Shown here: piece after piece, positions 22,008 to 64,000 of the stretch
Layout: each line of letters begins with the position of its first letter
Position numbering within the stretch: the first letter of the stretch is position 1
Assembly: GCF_023055435.1 (NCBI RefSeq)
Contig: NW_025963957.1
Location: 7,502,001 to 7,566,000, forward strand
Direction: 5' to 3'
Length of the DNA stretch: 64,000 bases
Source: Haliotis rufescens
Lineage: Eukaryota
Program-made: the position numbers and the translations under genes
The notes under the pieces: model-generated
Database searches by the model: none
The model's input: the letters and a program-made list of their open reading frames with translations, nothing else
Told to the model about the DNA's origin: nothing

Positions 22008-25000
22008 GAGCAACAATGTGTGGAGTTGGGACACGATGACATACATCAATCAAGTTAGCGACCCTGACACCCGATCCCGTTAGCAGAGCAACAATGTGTG
22101 GAGTTGGGACACGATGACATACATCAATCAAGTTAGCGACCCTGACACCCGATCCCGTTAGCAGAGCAACAATGTGTGGAGTTGGGACACGATGACATAC
22201 ATCAATCAAGTTAGCGACCCTGACACCCGATCCCGTTAGCAGAGCAACAATGTGTGGAGTTGGGACACGATGACATACATCAATCAAGTTAGCGACCCTG
22301 ACACCCGATCCCGTTAGCAGAGCAACAATGTGTGGAGTTGGGACACGATGACATACATCAATCAAGTTAGCGACCCTGACACCCGATCCCGTTAGCAGAG
22401 CAACAATGTGTGGAGTTGGGACACGATGACATACATCAATCAAGTTAGCGACCCTGACACCCGATCCCGTTAGCAGAGCAACAATGTGTGGAGTTGGGAC
22501 ACGATGACATACATCAATCAAGTTAGCGACCCTGACACCCGATCCCGTTAGCAGAGCAACAATGTGTGGAGTTGGGACACGATGACATACATCAATCAAG
22601 TTAGCGACCCTGACACCCGATCCCGTTAGCAGAGCAACAATGTGTGGAGTTGGGACACGATGACATACATCAATCAAGTTAGCGACCCTGACACCCGATC
22701 CCGTTAGCAGAGCAACAATGTGTGGAGTTGGGACACGATGACATACATCAATCAAGTTAGCGACCCTGACACCCGATCCCGTTAGCAGAGCAACAATGTG
22801 TGGAGTTGGGACACGATGACATACATCAATCAAGTTAGCGACCCTGACACCCGATCCCGTTAGCAGAGCAACAATGTGTGGAGTTGGGACACGATGACAT
22901 ACATCAATCAAGTTAGCGACCCTGACACCCGATCCCGTTAGCAGAGCAACAATGTGTGGAGTTGGGACACGATGACATACATCAATCAAGTTAGCGACCC
23001 TGACACCCGATCCCGTTAGCAGAGCAACAATGTGTGGAGTTGGGACACGATGACATACATCAATCAAGTTAGCGACCCTGACACCCGATCCCGTTAGCAG
23101 AGCAACAATGTGTGGAGTTGGGACACGATGACATACATCAATCAAGTTAGCGACCCTGACACCCGATCCCGTTAGCAGAGCAACAATGTGTGGAGTTGGG
23201 ACACGATGACATACATCAATCAAGTTAGCGACCCTGACACCCGATCCCGTTAGCAGAGCAACAATGTGTGGAGTTGGGACACGATGACATACATCAATCA
23301 AGTTAGCGACCCTGACACCCGATCCCGTTAGCAGAGCAACAATGTGTGGAGTTGGGACACGATGACATACATCAATCAAGTTAGCGACCCTGACACCCGA
23401 TCCCGTTAGCAGAGCAACAATGTGTGGAGTTGGGACACGATGACATACATCAATCAAGTTAGCGACCCTGACACCCGATCCCGTTAGCAGAGCAACAATG
23501 TGTGGAGTTGGGACACGATGACATACATCAATCAAGTTAGCGACCCTGACACCCGATCCCGTTAGCAGAGCAACAATGTGTGGAGTTGGGACACGATGAC
23601 ATACATCAATCAAGTTAGCGACCCTGACACCCGATCCCGTTAGCAGAGCAACAATGTGTGGAGTTGGGACACGATGACATACATCAATCTAATTAGCGAC
23701 CCTGACACCCGATCCCGTTAGCAGAGCAACAATGTGTGGAGTTGGGACACGATGACATACATCAATCTAATTAGCGACCCTGACACCCGATCCCGTTAGC
23801 AGAGCAACAATGTGTGGAGTTGGGACACGATGACATACATCAATCTAATTAGCGACCCTGACACCCGATCCCGTTAGCAGAGCAACAATGTGTGGAGTTG
23901 GGACACGATGACATACATCAATCTAATTAGCGACCCTGACACCCGATCCCGTTAGCAGAGCAACAATGTGTGGAGTTGGGACACGATGACATACATCAAT
24001 CAAGTTAGCGACCCTGACACCCGATCCCGTTAGAAGAACAACAATGTGTGGAGTTGGGACACGATGACATACATCAATCTAATTAGCGACCCTGACACCC
24101 GATCCCGTTAGCAGAGCAACAATGTGTGGAGTTGGGACACGATGACATACATCAATCAAGTTAGCGACCCTGACACCCGATCCCGTTAGAAGAACAACAA
24201 TGTGTGGAGTTGGGACACGATGACATACATCAATCTAATTAGCGACCCTGACACCCGATCCCGTTAGCAGAGCAACAATGTGTGGAGTTGGGACACGATG
24301 ACATACATCAATCTAATTAGCGACCCTGACACCCGATATCGTTAGCAGAGCAACAATGTGTGGAGTTGGGACACGATGACATACATCAATCTAATTAGCG
24401 ACCCTGACACCCGATCCCGTTAGCAGAGCAACAATGTGTGGAGTTGGGACACGATGACATACATCAATCTAATTAGCGACCCTGACACCCGATCCCGTTA
24501 GCAGAGCAACAATGTGTGGAGTTGGGACACGATGACATACATCAATCTAATTAGCGACCCTGACACCCGATCCCGTTAGCAGAGCAACAATGTGTGGAGT
24601 TGGGACACGATGACATACATCAATCAAGTTAGCGACCCTGACACCCGATCCCGTTAGCAGAGCAACAATGTGTGGAGTTGGGACACGATGACATACATCA
24701 ATCAAGTTAGCGACCCTGACACCCGACCCCGTTAGCAGAGCAACAATGTGTGGAGTTGGGACACGATGACATACATCAATCTAATTAGCGACCCTGACAC
24801 CCGATCCCGTTAGCAGAGCAACAATGTGTGGAGTTGGGACACGATGACATACATCAATCAAGTTAGCGACCCTGACACCCGATCCCGTTAGCAGAGCAAC
24901 AATGTGTGGAGTTGGGACACGATGACATACATCAATCAAGTTAGCGACCCTGACACCCGATCCCGTTAGCAGAGCAACAATGTGTGGAGTTGGGACACGA

Positions 25001-26562
25001 TGACATACATCAATCTAATTAGCGACCCTGACACCCGATCCCGTTAGCAGAGCAACAATGTGTGGAGTTGGGACACGATGACATACATCAATCAAGTTAG
25101 CGACCCTGACACCCGACCCCGTTAGCAGAGCAACAATGTGTGGAGTTGGGACACGATGACATACATCAATCTAATTAGCGACCCTGACACCCGATCCCGT
25201 TAGCAGAGCAACAATGTGTGGAGTTGGGACACGATGACATACATCAATCAAGTTAGCGACCCTGACACCCGACCCCGTTAGAAGAACAACAATGTGTGGA
25301 GTTGGGACACGATGACATACATCAGTCTAATTAGCGACCCTGACACCCGATCCCGTTAGCAGAGCAACAATGTGTGGAGTTGGGACACGATGACATACAT
25401 CAATCAAGTTAGCGACCCTGACACCCGACCCCGTTAGCAGAGCAACAATGTGTGGAGTTGGGACACGATGACATACATCAATCTAATTAGCGACCCTGAC
25501 ACCCGATCCCGTTAGCAGAGCAACAATGTGTGGAGTTGGGACACGATGACATACATCAATCAAGTTAGCGACCCTGACACCCGACCCCGTTAGAAGAACA
25601 ACAATGTGTGGAGTTGGGACACGATGACATACATCAATCAAGTTAGCGACCCTGACACCCGACCCCGTTAGAAGAACAACAATGGGTGGAGTTTGGACAC
25701 GATGACATACATCAATCAAGTTAGCGACCCTGACACCCGACCCCGTTAGCAGAGCAACAATGTGTGGAGTTGGGACACGATGACATACATCAATCTAATT
25801 AGCGACCCTGACACCCGATCCCGTTAGCAGAGCAACAATGTGTGGAGTTGGTACACGATGACATACATCAATCAAGTTAGCGACCCTGACACCCGACCCC
25901 GTTAGAAGAACAACAATGGGTGGAGTTTGGACACGATGACATACATCAATCAAGTTAGCGACCCTGACACCCGACCCCGTTAGCAGAGCAACAATGTGTG
26001 GAGTTGGGACACGATGACATACATCAATCAAGTTAGCGACCCTGACACCCGATCCCGTTAGCAGAGCAACAATGTGTGGAGTTGGGACACGATGACATAC
26101 ATCAATCAAGTTAGCGACCCTGACACCCGACCCCGTTAGCAGAGCAACAATGTGTGGAGTTGGGACACGATGACATACATCAATCAAGTTAGCGACCCTG
26201 ACACCCGATCCCGTTAGCAGAGCAACAATGTGTGGAGTTGGGACACGATGACATACATCAATCAAGTTAGCGACCCTGACACCCGACCCCGTTAGCAGAG
26301 CAACAATGTGTGGAGTTGGGACACGATGACATACATCAATCAAGTTAGCGACCCTGACACCCGACCCCGTTAGCAGAGCAACAATGTGTGGAGTTGGGAC
26401 ACGATGACATACATCAATCAAGTAAGCGACCCTGACACCCGACCCCGTTAGCAGAGCAACAATGTGTGGAGTTGGGACACGATGACATACATCAATCAAG
26501 TTAGCGACCCTGACACCCGACCCCGTTAGCAGAGCAACAATGTGTGGAGTTGGGACACGATG
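22008..26562. repeat. 78-bp satellite array (~58 copies) derived from an internal segment of SINE family 1
   Basis: Period 78 (identical line starts every 780 bp). The unit aligns to 18393-18470, and the flank 21890-22007 is the rest of the SINE. Confidence 0.97.
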
Positions 26563-26762
26563 ATATATCCTTGTTTGGGCATATGTAGGTGTCAGGTACA
26601 GATGTGAGTTTGATATATCTTTCTTTGGGCATATGTAGGTGTAAGGTACAGATGTGAGTTTGATATATCCTTGTTTGGGCATATGTAGGTTTCAGGTACA
26701 GATGTGAGTTTGATATCTCTCTGTGCATATGTAGGTGTCAGGTACAGATGTGAGTTTGATAT
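26563..26762. repeat. 50-bp minisatellite (4 copies) sharing the core tgtaggtgtcaggtacagat with the 43-bp array
   Basis: Direct tandem copies. Confidence 0.9.
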
Positions 26763-30666: not shown

Positions 30667-30845
30667 TCAGCCCGCAAACGCGTACTTCGTGTAAGTGATA
30701 ATTGGGTGTTCGCAGACTTTGCAAGCACCGCAACATTTGAGATTTCCCGGGCACTGATAGTCGAAGGTACATTCCGGAGGTTGGCCACACAACACACGGC
30801 CCCGGTGATAGTGATACACAGCGGCTGGGCAGAAGCCTCGTCTCA
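30667..30845 (-). CDS. Secreted repeat/WAP protein, exon 4 of 4: WAP four-disulfide core and stop
   Basis: ctttcag|(V)RRGFCPAAVYHYHRGRVLCGQPPECTFDYQCPGNLKCCGACKVCEHPIITYTKYAFAG*. 8 Cys in WAP spacing; this frame is not in the ORF track. Candidate AATAAA at 30069-30064. Confidence 0.88.
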
Positions 30846-31038: not shown

Positions 31039-31204
31039 NNNNNNNNNNNNNNNNNNNNNNNNNNNNNNNNNNNNNNNNNNNNNNNNNNNNNNNNNNNNNN
31101 NNNNNNNNNNNNNNNNNNNNNNNNNNNNNNNNNNNNNNNNNNNNNNNNNNNNNNNNNNNNNNNNNNNNNNNNNNNNNNNNNNNNNNNNNNNNNNNNNNNN
31201 NNNN
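31039..31204. other. Assembly gap (N run) within intron 3 of the WAP gene
   Basis: Run of N. Confidence 1.
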
Positions 31205-31660: not shown

Positions 31661-32683
31661 TTTATCATATAATGGTTAGGTTTCTCGGCAGGATAAAGCC
31701 AACGGATAAAAACGATATCCGTTGGGGTCATATGCGGATAGAGATGCAAATATCAAAGGTCATGTAGGGATTACTTTCACTGTTTATAAACAAACATGGC
31801 GTCGCCCTCGTCAATCGGCGATCGAGTCAGAATTACCCATCGGGAATGTGGATAAACTACAGAGATAATTGCTTTCATTATCAAAAGAACAGTCTAATAT
31901 ACTGAAAATCAGTGTCTAACTGTGACGTAGCTAAGGCATTTTATAAGTTTTGGCAACTTTGGAGATATAAATTTCGACACAATTTTGCGAGGGCACGAGG
32001 CCTAGCCAAGCGGGATCAGTAGCCATATCTGTGCTTGTAGACCTCTGCGGCTTGAACCTTTCTCCACAATTTAAAATAGTTGGATTTTGCCGAAATATGT
32101 TTTAATTGTTACATTGTTTCGTTTTGTCGCTGTGTGTACATCTGACTACACTTCTTAACGTTATGACAGGACAGACCGACTGTCAACAACGTCCGACCGT
32201 GGCCGCGACGTCTCATAGACTAGGGTTAGAGTAGCTTCCCTTTGACAAAGGGCAGTTACTCAAGCAGACAGACCGATGGATTTCCGCGAAAGGCAATTAA
32301 GAACAATTGTTGTTTTGCGTATATGTTGCTTCGCCACTGTATAAGAAAGAGATTTCAGTTGGAACTATATTGGCTACTGTCACTGTCCAACTGTCACATC
32401 CCTTACCCTGTGACGTAATAAATATTAATGCGCGCATTCCAGGAAAACTCGCAATGTTTCGGTATTGTTTGTGAGAGAGGGAAAGCGATTTTGAAGCAAA
32501 GAATTAAAGAATGACATTATATGATAAAGAGGTTATCACGCTTGTGTGTTTGGGGATGGTAAATATCTTGTATTAGGAATAAACAGTATGTATTTAGCTC
32601 GCCAAGGCTCGCTAAATACAATGTTTATTCCTAATGCAGGATATTTACCATCCCCAAACACACTCGCGTGATAACCTCTTTAT
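31661..32683 (-). mobile_element. Family A hairpin/subTIR element, intact hairpin
   Basis: Reverse complement of 7663-8603. About 160-bp palindrome at 32524-32683, subTIR tttatcatataatg / cattatatgataaa. Confidence 0.88.
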
Positions 32684-32725: not shown

Positions 32726-32816
32726 CTTTGGGGACACACTCGGCCTGGGGGGTGCAATACTGGGGTGTCGGACATCTAATGCTGCGACACAGTTGGCCGC
32801 GTGGGCATCGCACATC
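32726..32816 (-). CDS. Secreted repeat/WAP protein, exon 3: Cys-rich module
   Basis: ccttgcag|DVRCPRGQLCRSIRCPTPQYCTPQAECVPK-G|gtattt, phase 0 to 1. Completes a 6-Cys DPC..V.C..G..C (follistatin-N-like) pattern with exon 2. Confidence 0.85.
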
Positions 32817-33330: not shown

Positions 33331-34233
33331 CGCACAGGGATCCGGCTGAGCTGGTCTTTGTCCTGTACCTTGTGCTGGCCTTTGTCTTCTACCTTGTTCT
33401 GGAGCAGGAGGCAGTGGATGTGCTGATCTTTGTCTTATTCCTGGTGCTGGATCTACTGGTAGTCCACTTCCTTGTCCAATTCCTGCTGCTGTGTCTACTG
33501 GTAGTCCACTTTCTTGTCCTATTCCTAGTGCTGGATCTACTGGTAGTCCACTTCCTTGTCCAATTCCTAGTGCTGGATCTACTGGTAGTCCACTTCCTCG
33601 TCCTATTCCTAGTGCTGGGTCTACTGGTAGTCCACTTCCTTGTCCTATTCCTAGTGCTGGGTCTACTGGTAGTCCATTTCCTTGTCCTATTCCTAGTGCT
33701 GGATCTACTGATAGTGCACTTCCTTGTCCTATTCCTAGTGCTGGATCTACTGATCCTTGTCCAATTCCTGGTGCTGGATCTACTGGAAATGCACTTCCTT
33801 GTCCTATTCCTGCTGCTGGATCTACTGGTAGTGCATTTCCTTGTCCTATTCCTGCTGCTGGATCTACTGACAGAACACTTCCTTGTCCTAATGCTAGTGC
33901 TGGGTCTACTGGTAGTGCATTTCCTTGTCCTATCCCGGGTGTTTGATCTAGTGGTAGCGGATGTGCTAGTCCGTGAACTGTGCCTAGTGCTGGATCTTGT
34001 GTCAGTGGCTGTATCTGAGTGTGTGCTGCTGACGGTACTGCAGCCGCTGCTGGTTGTGACGCCGCTGCTGGTGCTGCTGCAAGTGCGACTGGATGTACGT
34101 GTGCCGCTGTGTGTGCAACAAGCAGTGGCTGTCCATATGTAACCATGTGGTCAGCTGGGTGGGTCATCCACCAGTGGTAGGGAACCATCTTAACAAGCAT
34201 CCCATAACTTGTCGCCCACACAGAGGCAAGTAT
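33331..34233 (-). CDS. Secreted repeat/WAP protein, exon 2: end of signal peptide, His/Ala/Pro-rich region, 14-aa Gly/Pro repeats, basic linker
   Basis: cttgcag|ILASVWATSYG...(GIGQGSGLPVDPAL)~13...QPDPCA|gtatgt. 903 nt, phase 0 to 0, open through non-repetitive flanks. Confidence 0.85.
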
Positions 34234-35584
34234 CTGCAAGTCAGGAGAATGACAATGTTATCTAATGAGTGTTTCCAGAATAGTTATCATAGCAATATTT
34301 CTATTAATAGATTAACTTAATTTATATCAGCATGCAATGCTAATTATTTAACTTGAAAAACTACTATTTATAACAGTACTTTGATTGTCGACCTGAGTGT
34401 ATATCACAATACTGCTTGTCACCCTCACCAATCAATCACACCCTTCCGTGTCACTGTCAACAGGTGTTGGGGTGTAGGATATGAAACTCTTATCTTAACT
34501 TTTGATTTGACGGTGACAAGAAAAGATACCAAAATGCTGTCGATCGGTATTTCTTTACCTGATCCAATAATTGGATAACACCATCATTCTTTAAAGTGTA
34601 ATGGACAAAATTTACATGCCATTCTAGAATTTAGAAAATTCCTCCATATACTTTGAATATAAGTGCTATTGTCCATTACAGTATAGAATTCATCACATTG
34701 TTTATTACATAATAGTATTCATTCCATTTTTTGTCGTGACATATGAAACACTTATACACACAACGACAGAGAAACATTGTACAACGAGTGAATCAAGGGG
34801 TTTATATACATTGTGTACGGCATCAAGTTTTCTATTTGTGGATTGGTGATGAAATAACATGGGTAGTTTCCTGTTCTGCCTCCCTTCCAGTGTTACATGA
34901 GAAGTGTTCATGTTCATCCTTTATCTTAAATGTAAACAAGCTTCAGATCAAACTCACATAGAGGTACAGCCACTGTACGGAATGTAACGATGACTCGATA
35001 CACCCAGGAATGGAGTTGAGTTTTCATGGTACTAATGTTGTATTCAAGTAGTATTCTGGCTATAAATAGGGGAACACCGGACATTGAAATACAACGTTGT
35101 ACATATCTGAACGCTTGAACAACTAGACCACCCAACCGATCCTTCTTACATATAGACATATCATAAAACAACTGATGTCTGTGTTTGACAGTAGCCACAA
35201 CTTCTGCTACAGCTAATCAACTCCAACGAAAAAGATGGAATTAAAGTATCAAATTGAAGATCACACCGCCCGACGTCGCCCAAAGATAACCGGTAAATAT
35301 AAAACAATAACGATACACTAACGAAAGGTAACGTGATGTTATTTGCACATCTTCCATGCTAAAGGTGCACCTAAACAATCTTTTCAAATGATTTACAAAG
35401 TTGACTTAAGAATTCACTGACTCTAAATTATGCTTAAACATTAAAACCAGCTGTTGGTTATGATCGGCCTCACCTCTATCGACGTTTAGTTTTGTTTTCA
35501 ACAACCAAAATGAAACATATTCTACATGCTACTGTTGAAAAGACAATGCTGCTACTGACAATAAACTGCTTAACAGACAATATT

Positions 35585-35755
35585 GCTACTTACAAACTAC
35601 AATAGGAAAGACATTGTTCCAACTTACAAACATTCGTAGGAAAGACATTGTTGCCACTTACAAACATTCGTAGGAAAGACATTGTTGCCACTTACAAACA
35701 TCTGTAGGAAAGACATTGTTCCTACTTACAAATAACTGTAGGAAAGACATTGTTG
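35585..35755 (-). repeat. 34-bp minisatellite (5 copies), each containing ATG + 6 codons + gtaagt donor
   Basis: ATGs at 35750, 35716, 35682, 35648 and 35614, each followed 21 nt later by gtaagt. Confidence 0.92.
35730..35750 (-). CDS. Secreted repeat/WAP protein, exon 1 coding part (MSFLQLF)
   Basis: acaATG TCT TTC CTA CAG TTA TTT|gtaagt, phase 0. Joins to give signal peptide MSFLQLFILASVWATSYG. Confidence 0.8.
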
Positions 35756-35806
35756 CTCCTCCGTATAACTGTGTAACCTTGCTCTGATCTCTTGGTTGAC
35801 GTGGTC

Positions 35807-35813
35807 TTTTATA
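35807..35813 (-). promoter_or_regulatory. TATA box of the WAP gene
   Basis: cTATAAAAg 57-63 bp upstream of the ATG at 35750. Confidence 0.7.
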
Positions 35814-42337: not shown

Positions 42338-43300
42338 TCTGACTGACTGATATAGGAGATTTAACGTGCGCTTTCCGACTGTAGCGTATTTAGCACACGG
42401 GCCTGGCCGGACCATTTATTGTATTCCGAAAAGGGTGAAAGTGATGTGTGCAACCCAAGCGGGGGCTTTTAGGGGTTGCTTATGTTGAAGTTTTGGAATT
42501 TTTAAATTTGGAATAAATGCCGAGGTGGGTGGAGGAGGGAACTAAGGGAGTCGGGTGAGGTGGGTGTTTGTATGTTTATTGGATTTTGGATTGGTAGATT
42601 AATTAGTTTTTAGATGCGCTTAATTAGGTCTGTTTTGATTAGGAATACGCCTAGGGCCTTAAAGTTTTCTAGTTTATTTTGAGGGTTTAGTATTTCATCT
42701 AGAATAGGAACCTTATTTAGATTGAGGGTGGTTTGTAGTGTGGTTCTGTGTGTTTGATAGTGGGTGCAGTGGATGGGTGCGTGTTCTGTGGTTTCAGATT
42801 GTTTGCAGTGGGGGCAGTTGCCTGTAGTGTGTCTTTTAAGTTTTTTTAGGTGGTTATTTAGGTTCGTGTGTCCTGTTTGGAGTTTTGTAATGAATCTGTC
42901 AATTTTTTTAGAGGGGTGTAGGATTTTAGGTTTGGCTAGTGGTTTTCTGAGCACTTTTTTGATTTGGCTATTTGAGTTTTGATATTGATTATGCCATTTT
43001 TTGGTTATTTTTTGTTTGTTTACACTTTTAATTTCTGATTTTGAGATGGGTAGGTTTAGGCTTATTACTGGTATTTTGAGAGATAATTTAGCTGCTTTAT
43101 CGGCGCTTTCGTTGCCGTAAATTCCTACGTGGGCGGGGGTCCACAAGAAGGTTATTTGTTTGCCTGCTTTTGTTAGGTCGTCGGAGCTTTTAAGTATTTG
43201 GTTCATTAATTTAGGTCGTTTTTTGGTATTTTTGTTTTGGAGGGCTTTTATTCCACTAAGGGAGTCGGTGAGAATTAGGATTTTATTGTTGTTTTTAGAT
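42338..43300 (-). mobile_element. 5'-truncated I-group (Nimb/I-like) LINE: RNase H, Cys/His knuckle and 3' UTR
   Basis: ILTDSLS..ITFLWTPAHVGIYGNESADKAAK..LQTGH..CPHC..ETTEH..HC in ORF 42610-43383. The tail ends gcgcacgttaaatc..(TCAG)3. Confidence 0.88.
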
Positions 43301-43403
43301 TGGGGCTGCCCAAGGACTAAATATATCATACAATTATTGAAATACCCGTATACATTCTGATTGTCGAGTGACCCTGTGAACAACCAACACCCTCCTCCCC
43401 CCC

Positions 43404-43434
<31 letters not shown>

Positions 43435-45687
43435 AGTAGCACGCTTACGGTTTTCAATATATACGATAACATACTACTTAGATGCGAACAGTTTAATTGA
43501 CAGCTGTTAATTGGTAACGGTCAAGCCTCAGTGAATTTGCATTGGGGGTGTGTGTGTGAGGGGGCGTCTGAAATAAAGGTGGATTCAGTCGGAATAAAGA
43601 TAAGATAATGATCTCATAAATTTTATTGAAGGCTTTGAAAGTTTAGGATCGGCGAGACCGTAACACAGAGTAATTAACAAAACGATCACGTGATCGTGGC
43701 GCTGATAGACAATACCCACCGACCACGTGCGCGAGACAATGTACCACCGTATGAAGTGACAATACCCGAGGATATTTAATTGCCAAGTTGGCAGGAAGTC
43801 TGGCGGCACGGCACGTACAATATGCGTCGTTTGGGTATTCTTAATTGTCTCAGCACCAGCTTTGATGGGGCATTAAGAGAAGATGATATATATGTTTATT
43901 TTAGGAAAACATTAATACAACAATTTGTTATATTAATTAACATTGGGACTATAAAGTTAGTTTTATCTAAATATTTCTAACGTTATAAATAATAGAAAAC
44001 TCGCATGTAAATTATCAAAATACTGCATGGATTGGTATTTTGTAATTTTCCGTGTTTTCACTTTCACTGATCACCACAGGCAAATTCATGGTCACATAGC
44101 TACACTACAAGTGTCGCCATACAGCTACAATAAGTTGCCTAATGTCCTTGAGACAGTATACAAGTCGCAATAACACCACAGGGGATGGAGATATCTCCTT
44201 TTCAGATTAGTTTGTTTGCGTATTTTTTTATCAAAAGTGGTAGAAATAAATACACTAAAATTAGACACTTACAAAACGCGTTTCGCATGGCAGCAGAGCC
44301 ACACATTCACTGTTTGGAGTACAGGTTGTTATTTGGTTGTTGTTATATGAAATAACCGTGTTACCAAAATTCCACGTTCTAGGGTCGGCGTTTCCAGAAA
44401 TAAAACAATAAATATTTTGACGTCTTACCTGTATCGTAATTGCAAGACGGTAACCAGACGCTGTAACTCTGCTGACTGCACGTGGTTCGGGATCTTTGCT
44501 GTGGCTGAAATAAAGAGTGCTATTTTTTACAGAAAGAGACCACGTTGCTTGTGCCATTGTGCAAAGACATTGTGCGAAGGCACGATTCTGAATATACACG
44601 AATATATACAAGTCACATGACAAAGAAGGTATTTACATGAAAGATATTTTAAATCTCGATGTTAGAGACCTTGAGAAATGTAGATTTAACTGAATCCAAT
44701 CCGATTTAGGGTTACTATCATTCATTACAAATGGATAATACGATATTGCATTATAGAGAGGGTAATTATAGCTACCTGAAGGAGCAACCATATGTCCACT
44801 CTTTGAAGTTGCCGCCAAACCGGACGCGTAATTGAAACTCGCAAGAACACTGTGTACACAGCTTCTTTCTAAATTTGGAGAAGCGTAAGTGTGGTGAAAG
44901 AACAATATGAATGTAAGTCAGGCATGAAGTTGCACGGAGGAACCAACGTGAGACTTTATAATCACATGGTTGTTCATATATGTTATTTAATGCGTGATAG
45001 GTATTACCGCTTAAAAGGTGGTTTTGTATTTATAATAAAAACTGATCGTTTACATTGTCTGGGTAGCAACATAACTGTTGCATAGGGTATGTTGTTTAAT
45101 GATAATACTATATGAAAATTCCTCGAGCCAGCTGACTTACACTATGGATAGTGTACAAGACAACAGTTATAGAACATCACGTGATAAGGTTGATGGAAAC
45201 GGCAAAATATTTATTTACAATATATGTGTTTCCAGGGGAAGAGCCTGTTACAAAATATGTGTCTAAAAAAAAGTAAACTCGCTCCTTGTCGGACAAAACT
45301 GAATGTAATTAAGTTAACTACCTATGTACATTATCAGTGGAGTACTTGAATTAATATCAAATTGTAACCCGAGATGCTGGTGCCACACCTTATTACGTGA
45401 CCACCCAGTGAGGCGTGAACACTCAAGGGGGCATGATATACACCCTTGTGTTTGATTTGATATACCAATCAGCCGTGGACGCCCGACCATAAAAATGGTA
45501 TATATAGATTTAACCCTAATCAGGTATCGTTAAATATCGTTAAATCGTCGAGAACGTTCTGTCAGACGATCAAACGATAACTATTCAACAAGTCGGTAAA
45601 TCACATCGAAAACCCAAGTTCTGGTCGCAGTGAGAAGCTCTAGATGCCTTGAGGAGGGTTCACCAGCTCTGCTTCAACAACGTTGAC

Positions 45688-53480: not shown

Positions 53481-55317
53481 AGTTCAAGAGGCAATAGAGA
53501 AGAACAATGAAAAACTGCAAAAACAATCAAAGGTAATTTCAATAAATATTGCATTTCTTTTGAAATATGTATTGTGATGTGTAATATTAGGGTTAGTCAG
53601 CGTTACTTAGGATATGTGTAATGTGGGCAGAGAAACAACCCAACTTCATGAGGTTACTATTTTTGCTTTTATTGTATAGATGCACTGTGATTTTAATTAT
53701 GTTCTCATATTCTTTACATTTTCTTTCTTTACTTTCAGATCACTCTGACAAAGCACCGAAGACAAGCGTTAGTATCAGAACAATAAAGAAGGAGCAGCAA
53801 GTTTTGCTGAAATGAACATATTTTTTGTCTAAGCTATGTGGCTGAGATATTGCCGAGGATTGCATTGCAGGAGTTTTGTAATGTGTATGTTTTTGTTTCT
53901 TAGTAAAGCTGTGTATTTAGAATTATATATATATATATACATATAAAAGATGAGATGAGATGTGCACAATGAAATTTATGAAACAATATATGCAGTTATA
54001 TTGTAAAATCTTGGTTGTGTTCTATTTTTTTCCATGTCTGAAGTTAACCTACTTTCAGAGTACCGTATATCACATGTAGGTTGTTTCTTTGAATTCCAAC
54101 TGGGGATTATATATTTGGTTGGCCCCATGGAATAATTATGAAATTTATTTTTTGAGAATCACATTCACCTTTACTGTTGTACACTTCAAAGTCGTAAAAA
54201 GGCCATTGAAAAATGGTCACTGAAATTCTCATAATAATTTAGATTAAATATAGGGTAAGCTCAAGGTTCAATGATTTGCATCTGTCTAGTATACAAAGGT
54301 ATGAGGCCAACATGTTGTTCCATTGTTTAATTCGAGTGACGTCAACTTTTCTTGATAAATTTGGTAAATATAATACCAAGATAAATATCTTCAATTGCTG
54401 AAATCAATTTAAACTCTCCAAAGATTGATGGTTGATATTACTGCAGAAAAAAATTCTGCCAGAAATTTCTGTAGAAAAAAAAAATTCTGCCAGAAATTTC
54501 TGTAAAAAAAAAAAATACTGCCAGAAATTTCTGCAGAAAAAAAAAATTCTGCCAGAAATTTCTGCAGTAATGCATTTTCTCAGCCAATTTTTGAGCTTGT
54601 GAACATGTGAACACACTGGGACACACATTATTTGGATTCGACTCCTCGAGAGCTTTCCAATGATATAAAACATGTTTTTGTAGCTCGCTTCCTTCTGTGT
54701 GGTCAAGTTCGGACTCCTGGCCATTCCTAAGTTGTCCCGCCCTGCCTTAGCGTAAAGAACACATTTTGCACGAGGTCCGAGTCTATATAGTCAGTGTAGT
54801 ATGGGGCTGCTCAATCGTCAAGGCAACACCCTTTGCTGTGCGTCCCTTTCGCATAACAGAAACCCACCACCATGGGCTCATCGCCACGACATCTGCAACT
54901 TTAATAACCGATCTACTGATGAAGATATCCATTTGTGTTCTCATGATGGTCACAAGCAAGAGCATTTGTAACCAGAACAAGTGTTTTGTTTAGACATTTG
55001 CTAAACAGTTGTTGCCACACAACATCAAATCAGAGGATATTCTAATTACGATTGATTGACGTTTATTCTGAATCGGGGACGCTAAGACACGGGTACACAA
55101 CGTGAGACTTCCCTTCTGTTTCCGGAACAGCAAAATGTTTTAATCGGAACTCGGTCAGTCAGGATGAATTTGCATCGTAACTTTCCTGTTAGGCCAGATT
55201 TAGTTGAATTCCCACAGAACAATTCCAATTTTGCGTGCTTTCGGCTTACTCAAAATATCGCTTTCTGTCTAAATCGTCATGATTAGTCCAGAAAAGGAGT
55301 GTCGTCTATTCGTGTTA

Positions 55318-57195
55318 CATGGCCAAACAGAGGATACATCACATCGTATACTCGTGATACACGGACACACAGAGGATACATCACATCGTATACTCGTGAT
55401 ACACGGACACACAGAGGGTACATCACATCATATTCTCGTGATACACGGACATACAGAGGATACATCACATCGTATACTCGTGATACCCGGACACACATAG
55501 GATACATCACATCGTATACTCGTGATACACGGACACACAGAGGATACATCACATCGTATACTCGGGGTACATGGCCACACAGAGGATACATCACTGTGTA
55601 TACTCGTGATACACGGACACACAGAGGATACATCACATCGAATACTCGTGATACACGGACACACAGAGGATACATCACATCGTATACTCGTGATACACGG
55701 ACACACAGAGGATACATCACATCGTATACTCGTGATACACGGACACACAGAGGATACATCACATCGTATACTCGTGGTACATGGCCACACAGAGGATACA
55801 TCACTCTGTATACTCGTGATACACGGACACACAGAGGATACATCACATCGTATACTCGGGGTACATGGCCACACAGAAGATACATCACATCGTATACTCG
55901 TGATACACGGACACACAGAGGATACATCACATCGTATACTCGTGGTACATGGCCACACAGAGGATATATCACATCGTATACTCGTGGTACATGGCCACAC
56001 AGAGGATACATCACTCTGTATACTCGTGATACACGGACATACAGAAGGTACGTCACATCGTATACTCGTGATACACGGACATACCGAAGGTACGTCACAT
56101 CGTATACTCGTGATACACGGACACACAGAGGATACATCACATCGTATACTCGTGATACACGGACACACAGAGGATACATCACATCGTATACTCGGGGTAC
56201 ATGGCCACACAGAGGATACATCACATCGTATACTCGTGATACACGGACATACAGAAGGTACGTCACATCGTATACTCGTGATACACGGACATACAGAAGG
56301 TACGTCACATCGTATACTCGTGATACACGGACACACAGAAGATACATCACATCGTATACTCGTGATACACGGCCACACAGAGGATACATCACATCGTATA
56401 CTCGTGGTACATGGCCACACAGAGGATACATCACATCGTATACTCGTGATACACGGACATACAGAAGGTACGTCACATCGTATACTCGTGATACACGGAC
56501 ACACAGAAGATACATCACATCGTATACTCGTGATACACGGACACACAGAGGATATATCACATCGTATACTCGTGGTACATGGCCACACAGAGGATACATC
56601 ACATCGTATACTCGTGATACACGGACATACAGAAGGTACGTCACATCGTATACTCGGATTACATGGCCACACGAAGGGTACATCATATTCTATCCTCGGG
56701 GTACACAAACACACAGAGGGTACACCACCTCGTATACTCGGGGTACACGGACACACGAAGGGCACATCACATCGTATACTCGGATTACATGGCCACACGA
56801 AGGGTACATCACATCGTATACTCGGGGTACACGGCCACACGGAGGGTACATCACATCGTATACTCAGGATACATGGCCACACAGAGGATATACTACATCG
56901 GATACTCGGGGTACACGAACACACATAAGGTAGGTACATCACATCGTATACTCGGGGTACACAAACACACAGAGGGTACATCACATCGTACAGTCGGGAC
57001 ACGAAGACACACAGAGGGTACATCACATCGTTTACTCGGATTACATGACACCAGGAAGGGTACATCACATCGTATATATGGGGTACACGGCCCCACGGAG
57101 GGTACATCACATCTCATACTCGGATTACATGGCCACAAGAAGGGTACATCACATCGTATACTCGGGGTACACGGTCACACCGACGGTACATCACG
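55318..57195. repeat. 42-bp minisatellite (acacacagaggatacatcacatcgtatactcgtgatacacgg)n
   Basis: About 44 copies, diverging at the right end. Open in several frames on both strands. Confidence 0.96.
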
Positions 57196-60045: not shown

Positions 60046-60916
60046 TACTGGGATGTTGTCTGTGGTGTGACCTGGCTCTTGTACTGGGATGTTGTCTGTA
60101 GTGTGACCTGGCTCTTGTACTGGGATGTTGTCTGTAGTGTGACCTGGCTCTTGTACTGGGATGTTGTCTGTAGTGTGACCTGGCTCTTGTACTGGGATGT
60201 TGTCTGTAGTGTGACCTGGCTCTTGTACTGGGATGTTGTCTGTAGTGTGACCTGGCTCTTGTACTGGGATGTTGTCTGTAGTGTGACCTGGCTCTTGTAC
60301 TGGGATGTTGTCTGTAGTGTGACCTGGCTCTTGTACTGGGATGTTGTCTGTACTGTGACCTGGCTCTTGTACTGGGATGTTGTCTGTAGTGTGACCTGGC
60401 TCTTGTACTGGGATGTTGTCTGTAGTGTGACCTGGCTCTTGTACTGGGATGTTGTCTGTAGTGTGACCTGGCTCTTGTACTGGGATGTTGTCTGTAGTGT
60501 GACCTGGCTCTTGTACTGGGATGTTGTCTGTAGTGTGACCTGGCTCTTGTACTGGGATGTTGTCTGTAGTGTGACCTGGCTCTTGTACTGGGATGTTGTC
60601 TGTAGTGTGACCTGGCTCTTGTACTGGGATGTTGTCTGTAGTGTGACCTGGCTCTTGTACTGGGATGTTGTCTGTAGTGTGACCTGGCTCTTGTACTGGG
60701 ATGTTGTCTGTAGTGTGACCTGGCTCTTGTACTGGGATGTTGTCTGTGGTGTGACCTGGCTCTTGTACTGGGATGTTGTCTGTAGTGTGACCTGGCTCTT
60801 GTACTGGGATGTTGTCTGTAGTGTGACCTGGCTCTTGTACTGGGATGTTGTCTGTAGTGTGACCTGGCTCTTGTACTGGGATGTTGTCTGTAGTGTGACC
60901 TGGCTCTTGTACTGGG
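60046..60916. repeat. 36-bp minisatellite (tactgggatgttgtctgtagtgtgacctggctcttg) x24
   Basis: Near-perfect tandem copies. Confidence 0.97.
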
Positions 60917-62254: not shown

Positions 62255-64000
62255 TGACACAAGGACACTTACATTGTTGACACAGGGACACTTACATTGT
62301 TGACACAAGGACACTTACATTGTTGACACAGGGACACTTACATTGTTGACACAGGGACACTTACATTGTTGACACAAGGACACTTACATTGTTGACACAA
62401 GGACACTTACATTGTTGACACAAGGATACTTACATTGTTGACACAAGGACACTTACATTGTTGACACAGGGACACTTACATTGTTGACACAAGGACACTT
62501 ACATTGTTGACACAGGGACACTTATATTGTTGACACAAGGACACTTACATTGTTGACACAGGGACACTTACATTGTTGACACAGGGACACTTACATTGTT
62601 GACACAAGGACACTTACATTGTTGACACAGGGACACTTACATTGTTGACACAGGGACACTGACATTGTTGACACAAGGACACTTACATTGTTGACACAGG
62701 GACACTTACATTGTTGACACAGGGACACTTACATTGTTGACACAAGGACACTTACATTGTTGACAGAGGGACACTTACATTGTTGACACAGGGACACTTA
62801 CATTGTTGACACAAGGACACTTACATTGTTGACACAAGGACACTTACATTGTTGACACAGGGACACTTACATTGTTGACACAAGGACACTTACATTGTTG
62901 ACACAGGGACACTTACATTGTTGACACAGGGACACTTACATTGTTGACACAAGGACACTTACATTGTTGACAAAGGGACACTTACATTGTTGACAAAGAG
63001 ACACTTACATTGTTGACACAAGGACACTAACATTGTTGACACAGGAGCAGATACATTGTTGACACAGGGACACTTACATTGTTGACACAGGGACTCTTAC
63101 ATTGTTGACACAAGGACACTAACATTGTTGACACAGGAGCAGATACATTGTTGACACAGGGACACTTACATTGTTGACACAGGGACTCTTACATTGTTGA
63201 CACAGGGACACTCACATTGTTGACACAGGGACACTTACATTGTTGACACAAGGACACTTACATTGTTGACACAGGGACTCTTACATTGTTGACACAGGGA
63301 CACTTACATTGTTGACACAGGAGCAGATACATTGTTGACACAAGGACACTTACATTGTTGACACAGGGACACTTACATTGTTGACACAGGGACTCTTACA
63401 TTGTTGACAGAGGGACACTTACATTGTTGACACAGGGACACTTACATTGTTGACACAAGGACACTTACATTGTTGACACAGGGACTCTTACATTGTTGAC
63501 ACAGGGACACTTACATTGTTGACACAGGAGCAGATACATTGTTGACACAGGGACACTTACATTGTTGACGCAGGGACACTTACATTGTTGACACAGGGAC
63601 ACTTACATTGTTGACACAAGGACACTTACATTGTTGACACAGGGACACTTACATTGTTGACACAGGGACACTTACATTGTTGACACAGGAGCAGATACAT
63701 TGTTGACACAAGGACACTTACATTGTTGACACAGGGACACTTACATTGTTGACACAGGGACACTTACATTGTTGACACAGGGACACTTACATTGTTGACA
63801 CAGGGACACTTACATTGTTGACACAGGGACACTTACATTGTTGACACAGGGACACTTACATTGTTGACACAAGGACACTTACATTGTTGACACAGGGACA
63901 CTTACATTGTTGACACAGGAGCAGATACATTGTTGACACAGGGACACTTACATTGTTGACACATGGACATTTACATTGTTGACACAGGGACACTTATATT
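62255..64000. repeat. 23-bp minisatellite (gacacagggacacttacattgtt)n running off the window
   Basis: About 75 copies. Confidence 0.97.

Follow-up and report, generated by a model that had tools for sequence, protein, structure and literature searches.

A minisatellite carrying the start codon and first splice donor of an abalone WAP-domain gene, with use of a downstream donor

Introduction

What becomes of a gene when its start codon and its first splice donor lie together in the unit of a minisatellite? The question is raised by a locus of Haliotis rufescens within the 64-kb stretch of DNA analysed here (the window), in which five tandem 34-bp units each hold an ATG and the same donor. Such an array asks which of the donors is chosen, what the skipped start codons do to the message, and whether the arrangement is kept by selection or left by slippage.

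Minisatellites that span a splice donor are already known, and what is new at this locus is a start codon within the unit. The known ones are described in human F7 intron 7 (37 bp, 5-9 copies), IFI6/6-16, CBS intron 13, LAMIN B2 and PDGF intron 4 (PMC1557585); two further donors are used in IFI6 and CBS, the extra donors of F7, LAMIN B2 and PDGF are silent, and human F7 is spliced from the first donor only. The amphioxus 'mirage' minisatellites of Adh3, BflGb6 and BflGb9 are reported not to disturb splicing (PMC3087553). A search of literature titles and abstract openings, a coverage outside of which most subscription papers lie, found no minisatellite with a start codon and a donor in one unit.

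Two other kinds of gene organisation bear on the locus. In unproductive splicing coupled to upstream open reading frames (uORFs) and decay, an alternative donor puts an out-of-frame AUG first, with an early stop far before the last junction, and the rules of scanning and decay hold that such a message makes little protein. In variable first-exon clusters of the protocadherin and UGT1A type, every first exon is driven by a promoter of its own and codes for a different domain.

Results

The gene that carries the array

The array lies at the start of a minus-strand gene that we modelled with four exons, three GT-AG introns and one open frame of 397 amino acids containing 14 cysteines. The gene is single-copy, with one match for each query in its own genome, and its product is probably a secreted protein, judging from a hydrophobic signal-like start. 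A TATA-like box with a putative promoter function is located at 35807-35813, upstream of the points at which two RNA contigs begin (35801 and 35773). Exon 1, when spliced from the first donor, extends over 35730-35801 and codes in 35750-35730 only, that is for 7 codons (21 bases). Intron 1 (34234-35729), defined by RNA joints, is 1496 nt long from donor 1 and 1462 nt from donor 2, and its acceptor TTGCAG is located just before 34233. Exon 2 (33331-34233; 301 codons), whose 5' part is covered by RNA and whose 3' end was placed from a GT and the frame, encodes the remainder of the signal peptide, a stretch rich in His, Ala and Pro, and some 13 repeats of 14 amino acids (33430-33957). At the DNA level these are 12.8 copies of a 42-bp coding repeat, a second repeat-driven part of the gene. 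AG/GT ends and frame continuity point to a Cys-rich module in exon 3 (32726-32816), and Pfam and frame continuity to a WAP domain in the coding part of exon 4 (30667-30845; stop at 30669-30667), where PF00095 scored 29 bits against a gathering cut-off of 20.8. No WAP domain was found in exons 2 and 3.

Searches for relatives of this protein gave little. None was found for the exon 2 protein, nor for exon 4 among longer proteins, and a protein atlas search gave no usable match. A search of representative proteins gave 83 matches, all of them on the repeat tract and none on the start of exon 2, exon 3 or exon 4, while solved structures gave just two weak antileukoproteinase matches (E 0.44 and 0.56). 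Because no orthologue was found in these searches, the start codon region could be compared with none. The nearest known likeness is to perlwapin, an abalone WAP-domain secreted protein (PMC6003135) that has three WAP domains according to a title cited there. The signal peptide, the low-complexity tandem repeats and the WAP four-disulfide domain are shared with perlwapin-type proteins; unlike perlwapin, the present protein has one WAP domain, placed after a long 14-amino-acid repeat tract. A role in shell or mucus, suggested by this likeness, would be a guess.

Several features of the surrounding sequence were noted in passing. Intron 3 contains a run of 166 N at 31039-31204, 194 bases upstream of exon 4, which could hide a small exon, and the gene model is in frame without one. 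The same intron holds a near-perfect palindromic element (32524-32683) with 62-nt arms that are 94% complementary and an inner 15-nt hairpin, probably a small transposon. A 36-base piece of intron 1 (35374-35409) matches unrelated contigs in runs X9 and X15 at less than 90% and is likely a dispersed repeat fragment. Elsewhere in the window, large homogeneous minisatellites are present at 22008-26567 (78 bp x 58), 55302-57194 (42 bp x 45), 60046-60916 (36 bp x 24 at 99%) and 62255-64000 (23 bp x 76), several of them with long open frames that may be repeat by-products. A 287-codon open frame on the minus strand at 42610-43473 looks by eye like the terminal portion of a non-LTR retrotransposon that includes an RNase H-like part.

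Five units with one donor and one start context

The initial annotation had described five 34-bp units with their donors and acceptor and five short peptides, and our re-reading of the sequence bore this out. The units occupy 35753-35584 of the minus strand, and each contains an ATG and the donor TTT/GTAAGT, the GTAAGT lying 21 bases past the ATG in every unit. TRF reported the array at 35575-35757 with a period of 34, 5.4 copies, 88% matches and a score of 230. Unit 1 (35720-35753) has its ATG at 35750, unit 2 (35686-35719) at 35716, unit 3 (35652-35685) at 35682, unit 4 (35618-35651) at 35648 and unit 5 (35584-35617) at 35614, and units 2, 3 and 4 have a second in-frame ATG, absent from the initial annotation, at 35701, 35667 and 35633, respectively. 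The GTAAGT begins at 35729, 35695, 35661, 35627 and 35593, which places the donors after 35730, 35696, 35662, 35628 and 35594. From -3 to +6 there is no difference among the five donors, and the context ACAATGT is common to the five ATGs, so that ATG1 has an A at -3 like the others.

The same annotation had every ATG in frame with exon 2 through its own donor. This holds for units 1 to 4, whereas unit 5, in register, carries an in-frame TAG (35599-35597) that makes a full protein impossible; there are therefore four coding first exons. The productive units vary at codons 5 and 6 only (QL, QM or RM). Units 3 and 4 are separated by 2 differences and unit 5 shows 5-7; beyond unit 5 lie two decayed copies at 35583-35550 and 35549-35516 (together 35516-35583; 23 and 19 of 34 matches to the unit) in which the ATG is lost and the donor changed.

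The unit is peculiar to this locus. Its pattern has 5 matches in the 1,334,454,214-base genome, all in the array, and 0 when read backwards as a control; the looser pattern ATG-N18-GTAAGT has 5 in the window, all on the strand of the array, and a DNA search with the 301-base array region returned only itself. An assembly artefact was ruled out: units 1-2 and 2-4 are matched by RNA contigs without a single difference, and every pair of adjacent units is spanned by DNA contigs from a relative.

Eight columns of the unit are variable, and all of them fall outside the 16 columns of the ATG context and the donor (naive P 0.002). When the columns were rotated so as to keep their clustering, 1 of 34 rotations avoided the ATG context and donor, and 15 of 34 did so when only the ATG and GT were considered. 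Clustering of changes also occurred in other five-unit blocks of the window, at P <0.005 in 3 of 30 and at P <0.05 in 5 of 30. After these controls, the clustered differences are a weak sign of selection, suggestive only.

Predicted outcome of splicing from each donor

Spliced through its own donor, each of units 1 to 4 would give a product of 397 amino acids, and the second ATGs of units 2 to 4 one of 392. When transcription starts upstream of ATG1, the donor-1 form would give the full protein from its first AUG. In the donor-2 form, the frame opened by ATG1 would be 32 codons long, would run over ATG2 and would end about 950 nt upstream of the last junction, while the forms from donors 3 and 4 would have 3 and 5 out-of-frame or terminated AUGs, respectively, ahead of the productive one, and donor 5 would allow no full product from exon 1. 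These frames agree with the earlier proposal that use of a downstream donor turns the upstream ATGs into out-of-frame or terminated uORFs. The stop that had been given for the frame of ATG1 was also confirmed, as a TAA in unit 3 (35660-35658, minus strand) that ends a predicted uORF of 30 codons (35658-35750), which would be whole only with splicing at donor 4 or 5 or with the intron retained.

In the gene model, the forms from donors 2-5 have their stops 924-1058 nt upstream of the last junction, on the assumption of a start upstream of ATG1 and of exons 3 and 4 as modelled. The two features of unproductive splicing, an out-of-frame first AUG and a stop far before the last junction, are both present in this model, and messages spliced from downstream donors are predicted to make little protein and to be prone to decay.

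The initial annotation had also supposed that the array could vary the signal peptide. This proposal is weakened, because only codons 5-6 differ, the hydrophobic core barely changes (peak hydropathy over 9 residues of 2.33 against 2.12 among unit variants) and ribosomes would have to skip ATG1. Signal-peptide variation of consequence is therefore unlikely.

Donor use in RNA contigs

Donor use was read from contigs assembled from five runs of organism A (X1 to X5; contigs 95-100% like the window), of which X1 to X4 belong to one study (P1). Eight of the 24 matching runs, most of them available as contigs, were compared with the window; none of the 24 is labelled RNA in its record, and it is the spliced joints that show X2, X3 and X4 to be RNA. 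Contigs crossing the junction were obtained from three of the five organism-A runs, all from P1, and since a contig keeps one path, the two donor-1 contigs and the one donor-2 contig give no donor proportions, and X3 and X4 may also use later donors.

The joint of X3 and X4 runs from 35730 to 34233 (donor 1), in contigs that reach 35801 and 35773, respectively. That of X2 runs from 35696 to 34233 (donor 2), an exact GT-AG skip of 1462 nt, and the contig covers 35696-35747 with 0 differences and hence reads through an intact donor 1, including the spacer behind it. Over these 52 letters the exon-1 side of the contig differs from the donor-1 form at 23 positions and from the later forms at 6, 8 and 9, which excludes a misplaced donor-1 or later-donor form. 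Word depth, a rough arithmetic that is unreliable for proportions, was 9-17 on the donor-2 side and 19-23 in exon 2. The first base of the X2 contig, 35747, lies immediately 3' of ATG1 and abuts a sequencing adapter, which leaves ATG1 outside the part of the message that is covered; a transcription start inside unit 1 was considered from this contig end and rejected, the adapter marking a fragment end, as at the end of X1 inside exon 2.

X1 gave no junction contig but a 64-nt array contig (35637-35700, in unit 3 and partly in unit 4) at a depth of 15.3, compared with 58.5 for exon 2. Of its 34 words, 0, 0, 10, 34 and 34 are present in the forms from donors 1 to 5, respectively, so that donor 3 must be read through. 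The simplest reading is that part of the messages are spliced at donor 4 or 5; the 34 words form a closed loop, and the contig could alternatively be unspliced RNA from an allele with many identical units. The stretch of intron 1 from 34248 to 35615 gave no contig in any of the four runs examined over it. Of the other runs, X5 (organism A) touches exon 2 only and X9 (organism D) also covers exon 2 only, stopping at 34218; neither has an exon-1 contig, and neither is informative on the absence of exon-1 forms. X6 (organism B) has no match to the window.

The downstream donor 2 is used, and splicing from later copies is likely as well. The earlier claim that downstream donors are used was upheld by the X2 joint and by the X1 array RNA past donor 3, and exclusive use of donor 1, which had been named beforehand as refuting, is not what the contigs show.

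A 7-bp hairpin in unit 1 was considered as a cause of the bypass of donor 1 and rejected. Its folding energy is -7.2 kcal/mol, compared with -2 to -4 in the other units, but 12 of 200 shuffled sequences fold equally well, so that the difference lacks significance, and when the whole region is folded donor 1 is paired to no greater extent than donors 2-4. For sites >40 nt apart, double occupancy has been described to favour the downstream one (PMC5933811). By analogy this rule would be inapplicable to neighbouring donors (34 nt) and could apply between alternate ones (68 nt).

A second haplotype of exon 2 was seen in X2 and X3, with variants at 34087, 34118 and 34143 (and 34159 in X2), at depths below that of the window's (6.7 against 12.3 and 3.9 against 6.6) that are too shallow for a call of imbalance. 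These variants are usable as markers of allele-specific expression.

Copy number in a relative

Run X15 (organism E) behaves as DNA, its intron and promoter being continuous at a depth of 39-40 with about 3% differences from the window (51 in contig 1 and 36 in contig 8). Its array breaks into at least six short contigs, at depths of 44, 134, 38, 107, 109 and 87, which show 1, 0, 0, 0, 0 and 2 differences from the units of the window. The six listed contigs amount to 238 flank-normalised words, compared with 105 expected for five units, which corresponds to at least 9 units, or about 10-13 when the unexplained depth is added. A loose end at 35670, with a unit-1-type middle behind a later-type start, showed that the order of the units also differs.

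The earlier expectation that repeat number varies was borne out, as a difference between genomes (5 in the window and at least 9 in X15). Organism E differs from the window by about 3% and has the same unit types; the array and these types therefore predate the split from that relative, and the copy number has changed since. Compared with the window, a 3-base in-frame insertion at 34023, within the Ala-rich part of exon 2, is common to organisms D and E.

Discussion

A probable slippage-born array that leaks output

We consider it probable that this splice-donor minisatellite was born by slippage and leaks output through its downstream donors and uORFs. That one 34-bp unit contains both the ATG and the donor would simply follow from the shortness of the coding part of exon 1 (21 bases). 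Identical donors at a spacing of 34 nt would then compete, and the first would not always be the winner. Scanning ribosomes would meet ATG1 first and, on a donor-2 message, would enter the 32-codon frame and make the message a substrate for decay, full protein from a downstream-spliced message requiring leaky scanning to the ATG of the last unit. More units would mean more leak. Since the downstream forms are predicted to be poor and the variants have nearly the same hydrophobicity, the likely effect is lost output, not a new signal peptide.

An origin by slippage, which had been offered earlier as the neutral alternative, fits well, because the unit is unique to the locus, 21 counted arrays cover 26% of the 64-kb window, the distal copies are decayed, unit 5 has a stop, and the relative differs in unit number and order. 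The use of downstream pseudo-sites in IFI6 and CBS would be a precedent for the leak. Several observations count against it: pure drift does not predict that all variable columns avoid the ATG context and donor, although this objection is weak after the controls; the large donor-2 share suggested by the rough depths sits ill with a wasteful, decay-prone form; the start of the X2 contig leaves ATG1 outside the covered message; the X1 loop contig could be unspliced RNA; and the first-donor-only splicing of human F7 would, as an analogy, speak for a silent array.

Other readings of the array

Donor 1 may instead do nearly all of the work, the downstream signals coming from splicing at trace level, from unspliced RNA or from the path taken by the assembly through a repeat. 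Two of the three junction contigs do use donor 1, contigs are a poor measure of abundance, and F7, LAMIN B2, PDGF and the amphioxus mirages splice solely at the authentic site (PMC1557585, PMC3087553). The donor-2 joint is, however, an exact GT-AG skip whose 52 matching letters take in the spacer that follows donor 1, its path was the one kept in the X2 assembly, and the X1 array RNA reaches a depth of 15 in an intron that is otherwise without contigs. We regard an almost silent array as unlikely. Productive alternative first exons, in which transcription starts inside the array or ATG1 is freely skipped to give full protein with slightly different signal peptides, are very unlikely. The 397- and 392-amino-acid products of the units would allow them, the X2 contig begins just 3' of ATG1, and decay would make a large donor-2 share harder to explain. 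Yet the single TATA-like box lies upstream of unit 1, the contigs from X3 and X4 have their 5' ends at 35801 and 35773, the X2 end abuts an adapter and is a fragment end, ATG1 has the same A at -3 as the other units, and the peptide changes are small.

The initial annotation had also raised a dosage rheostat. A selected one, in which repeat number and donor choice are kept in order to tune the secreted protein through uORFs and decay, is in our view improbable, and the wider idea of a mutable expression dial, in which each copy adds a competing donor and a uORF, copy number sets the output of secreted WAP protein and selection keeps the ATG and donor, is doubtful. The use of a downstream donor is real and may be large, the copy number is 5 in the window and at least 9 in the relative, the unit types persist there, and the variable columns avoid the ATG context and donor. 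The 31-bp repeat of CBS is, in addition, reportedly associated with reduced activity. Against a selected rheostat, changes cluster in other arrays of the window too, multi-copy arrays keep old variants without selection, the distal copies decay and unit 5 has a stop.

Comparison with known systems

The array shares with those of human F7, IFI6 and CBS a first unit that spans the exon-intron boundary, identical donors repeated exactly into the intron and a copy number that varies, here between genomes. It differs in that the abalone unit also holds the start codon and all exon-1 coding bases of an invertebrate first exon, and in that RNA hints at read-through past the third donor. Because the start codon is in the unit, skipped units become uORFs here, compared with inserted or frameshifting sequence in the human arrays. 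Like the amphioxus mirages, it is an invertebrate tandem duplication of an exon-intron boundary, of unstable length, homogenised inside and divergent at its edges; unlike them, it has a downstream donor in use and a start codon in the unit, a term that does not occur in PMC3087553.

The likeness to unproductive splicing, an out-of-frame first AUG and an early stop, holds in the gene model, in which the switch would be a repeat of changeable copy number, unlike the known cases. Unlike the protocadherin and UGT1A clusters, the units are 34 bp long with 7 codons, and one TATA-like box lies upstream of unit 1.

Most described donor-spanning minisatellites keep their extra donors silent, and here a downstream donor is used. 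As a small natural experiment, the array allows first-come donor selection to be examined at a first exon, with five identical donors 34 nt apart and units whose own codons let reads be assigned to donors; it likewise tests whether repeat turnover can create translation control from nothing. Any one gain or loss of units would affect the choice of donor and the number of uORFs at the same time. Should the downstream forms prove scarce or have no effect, the array would be an ordinary repeat scar.
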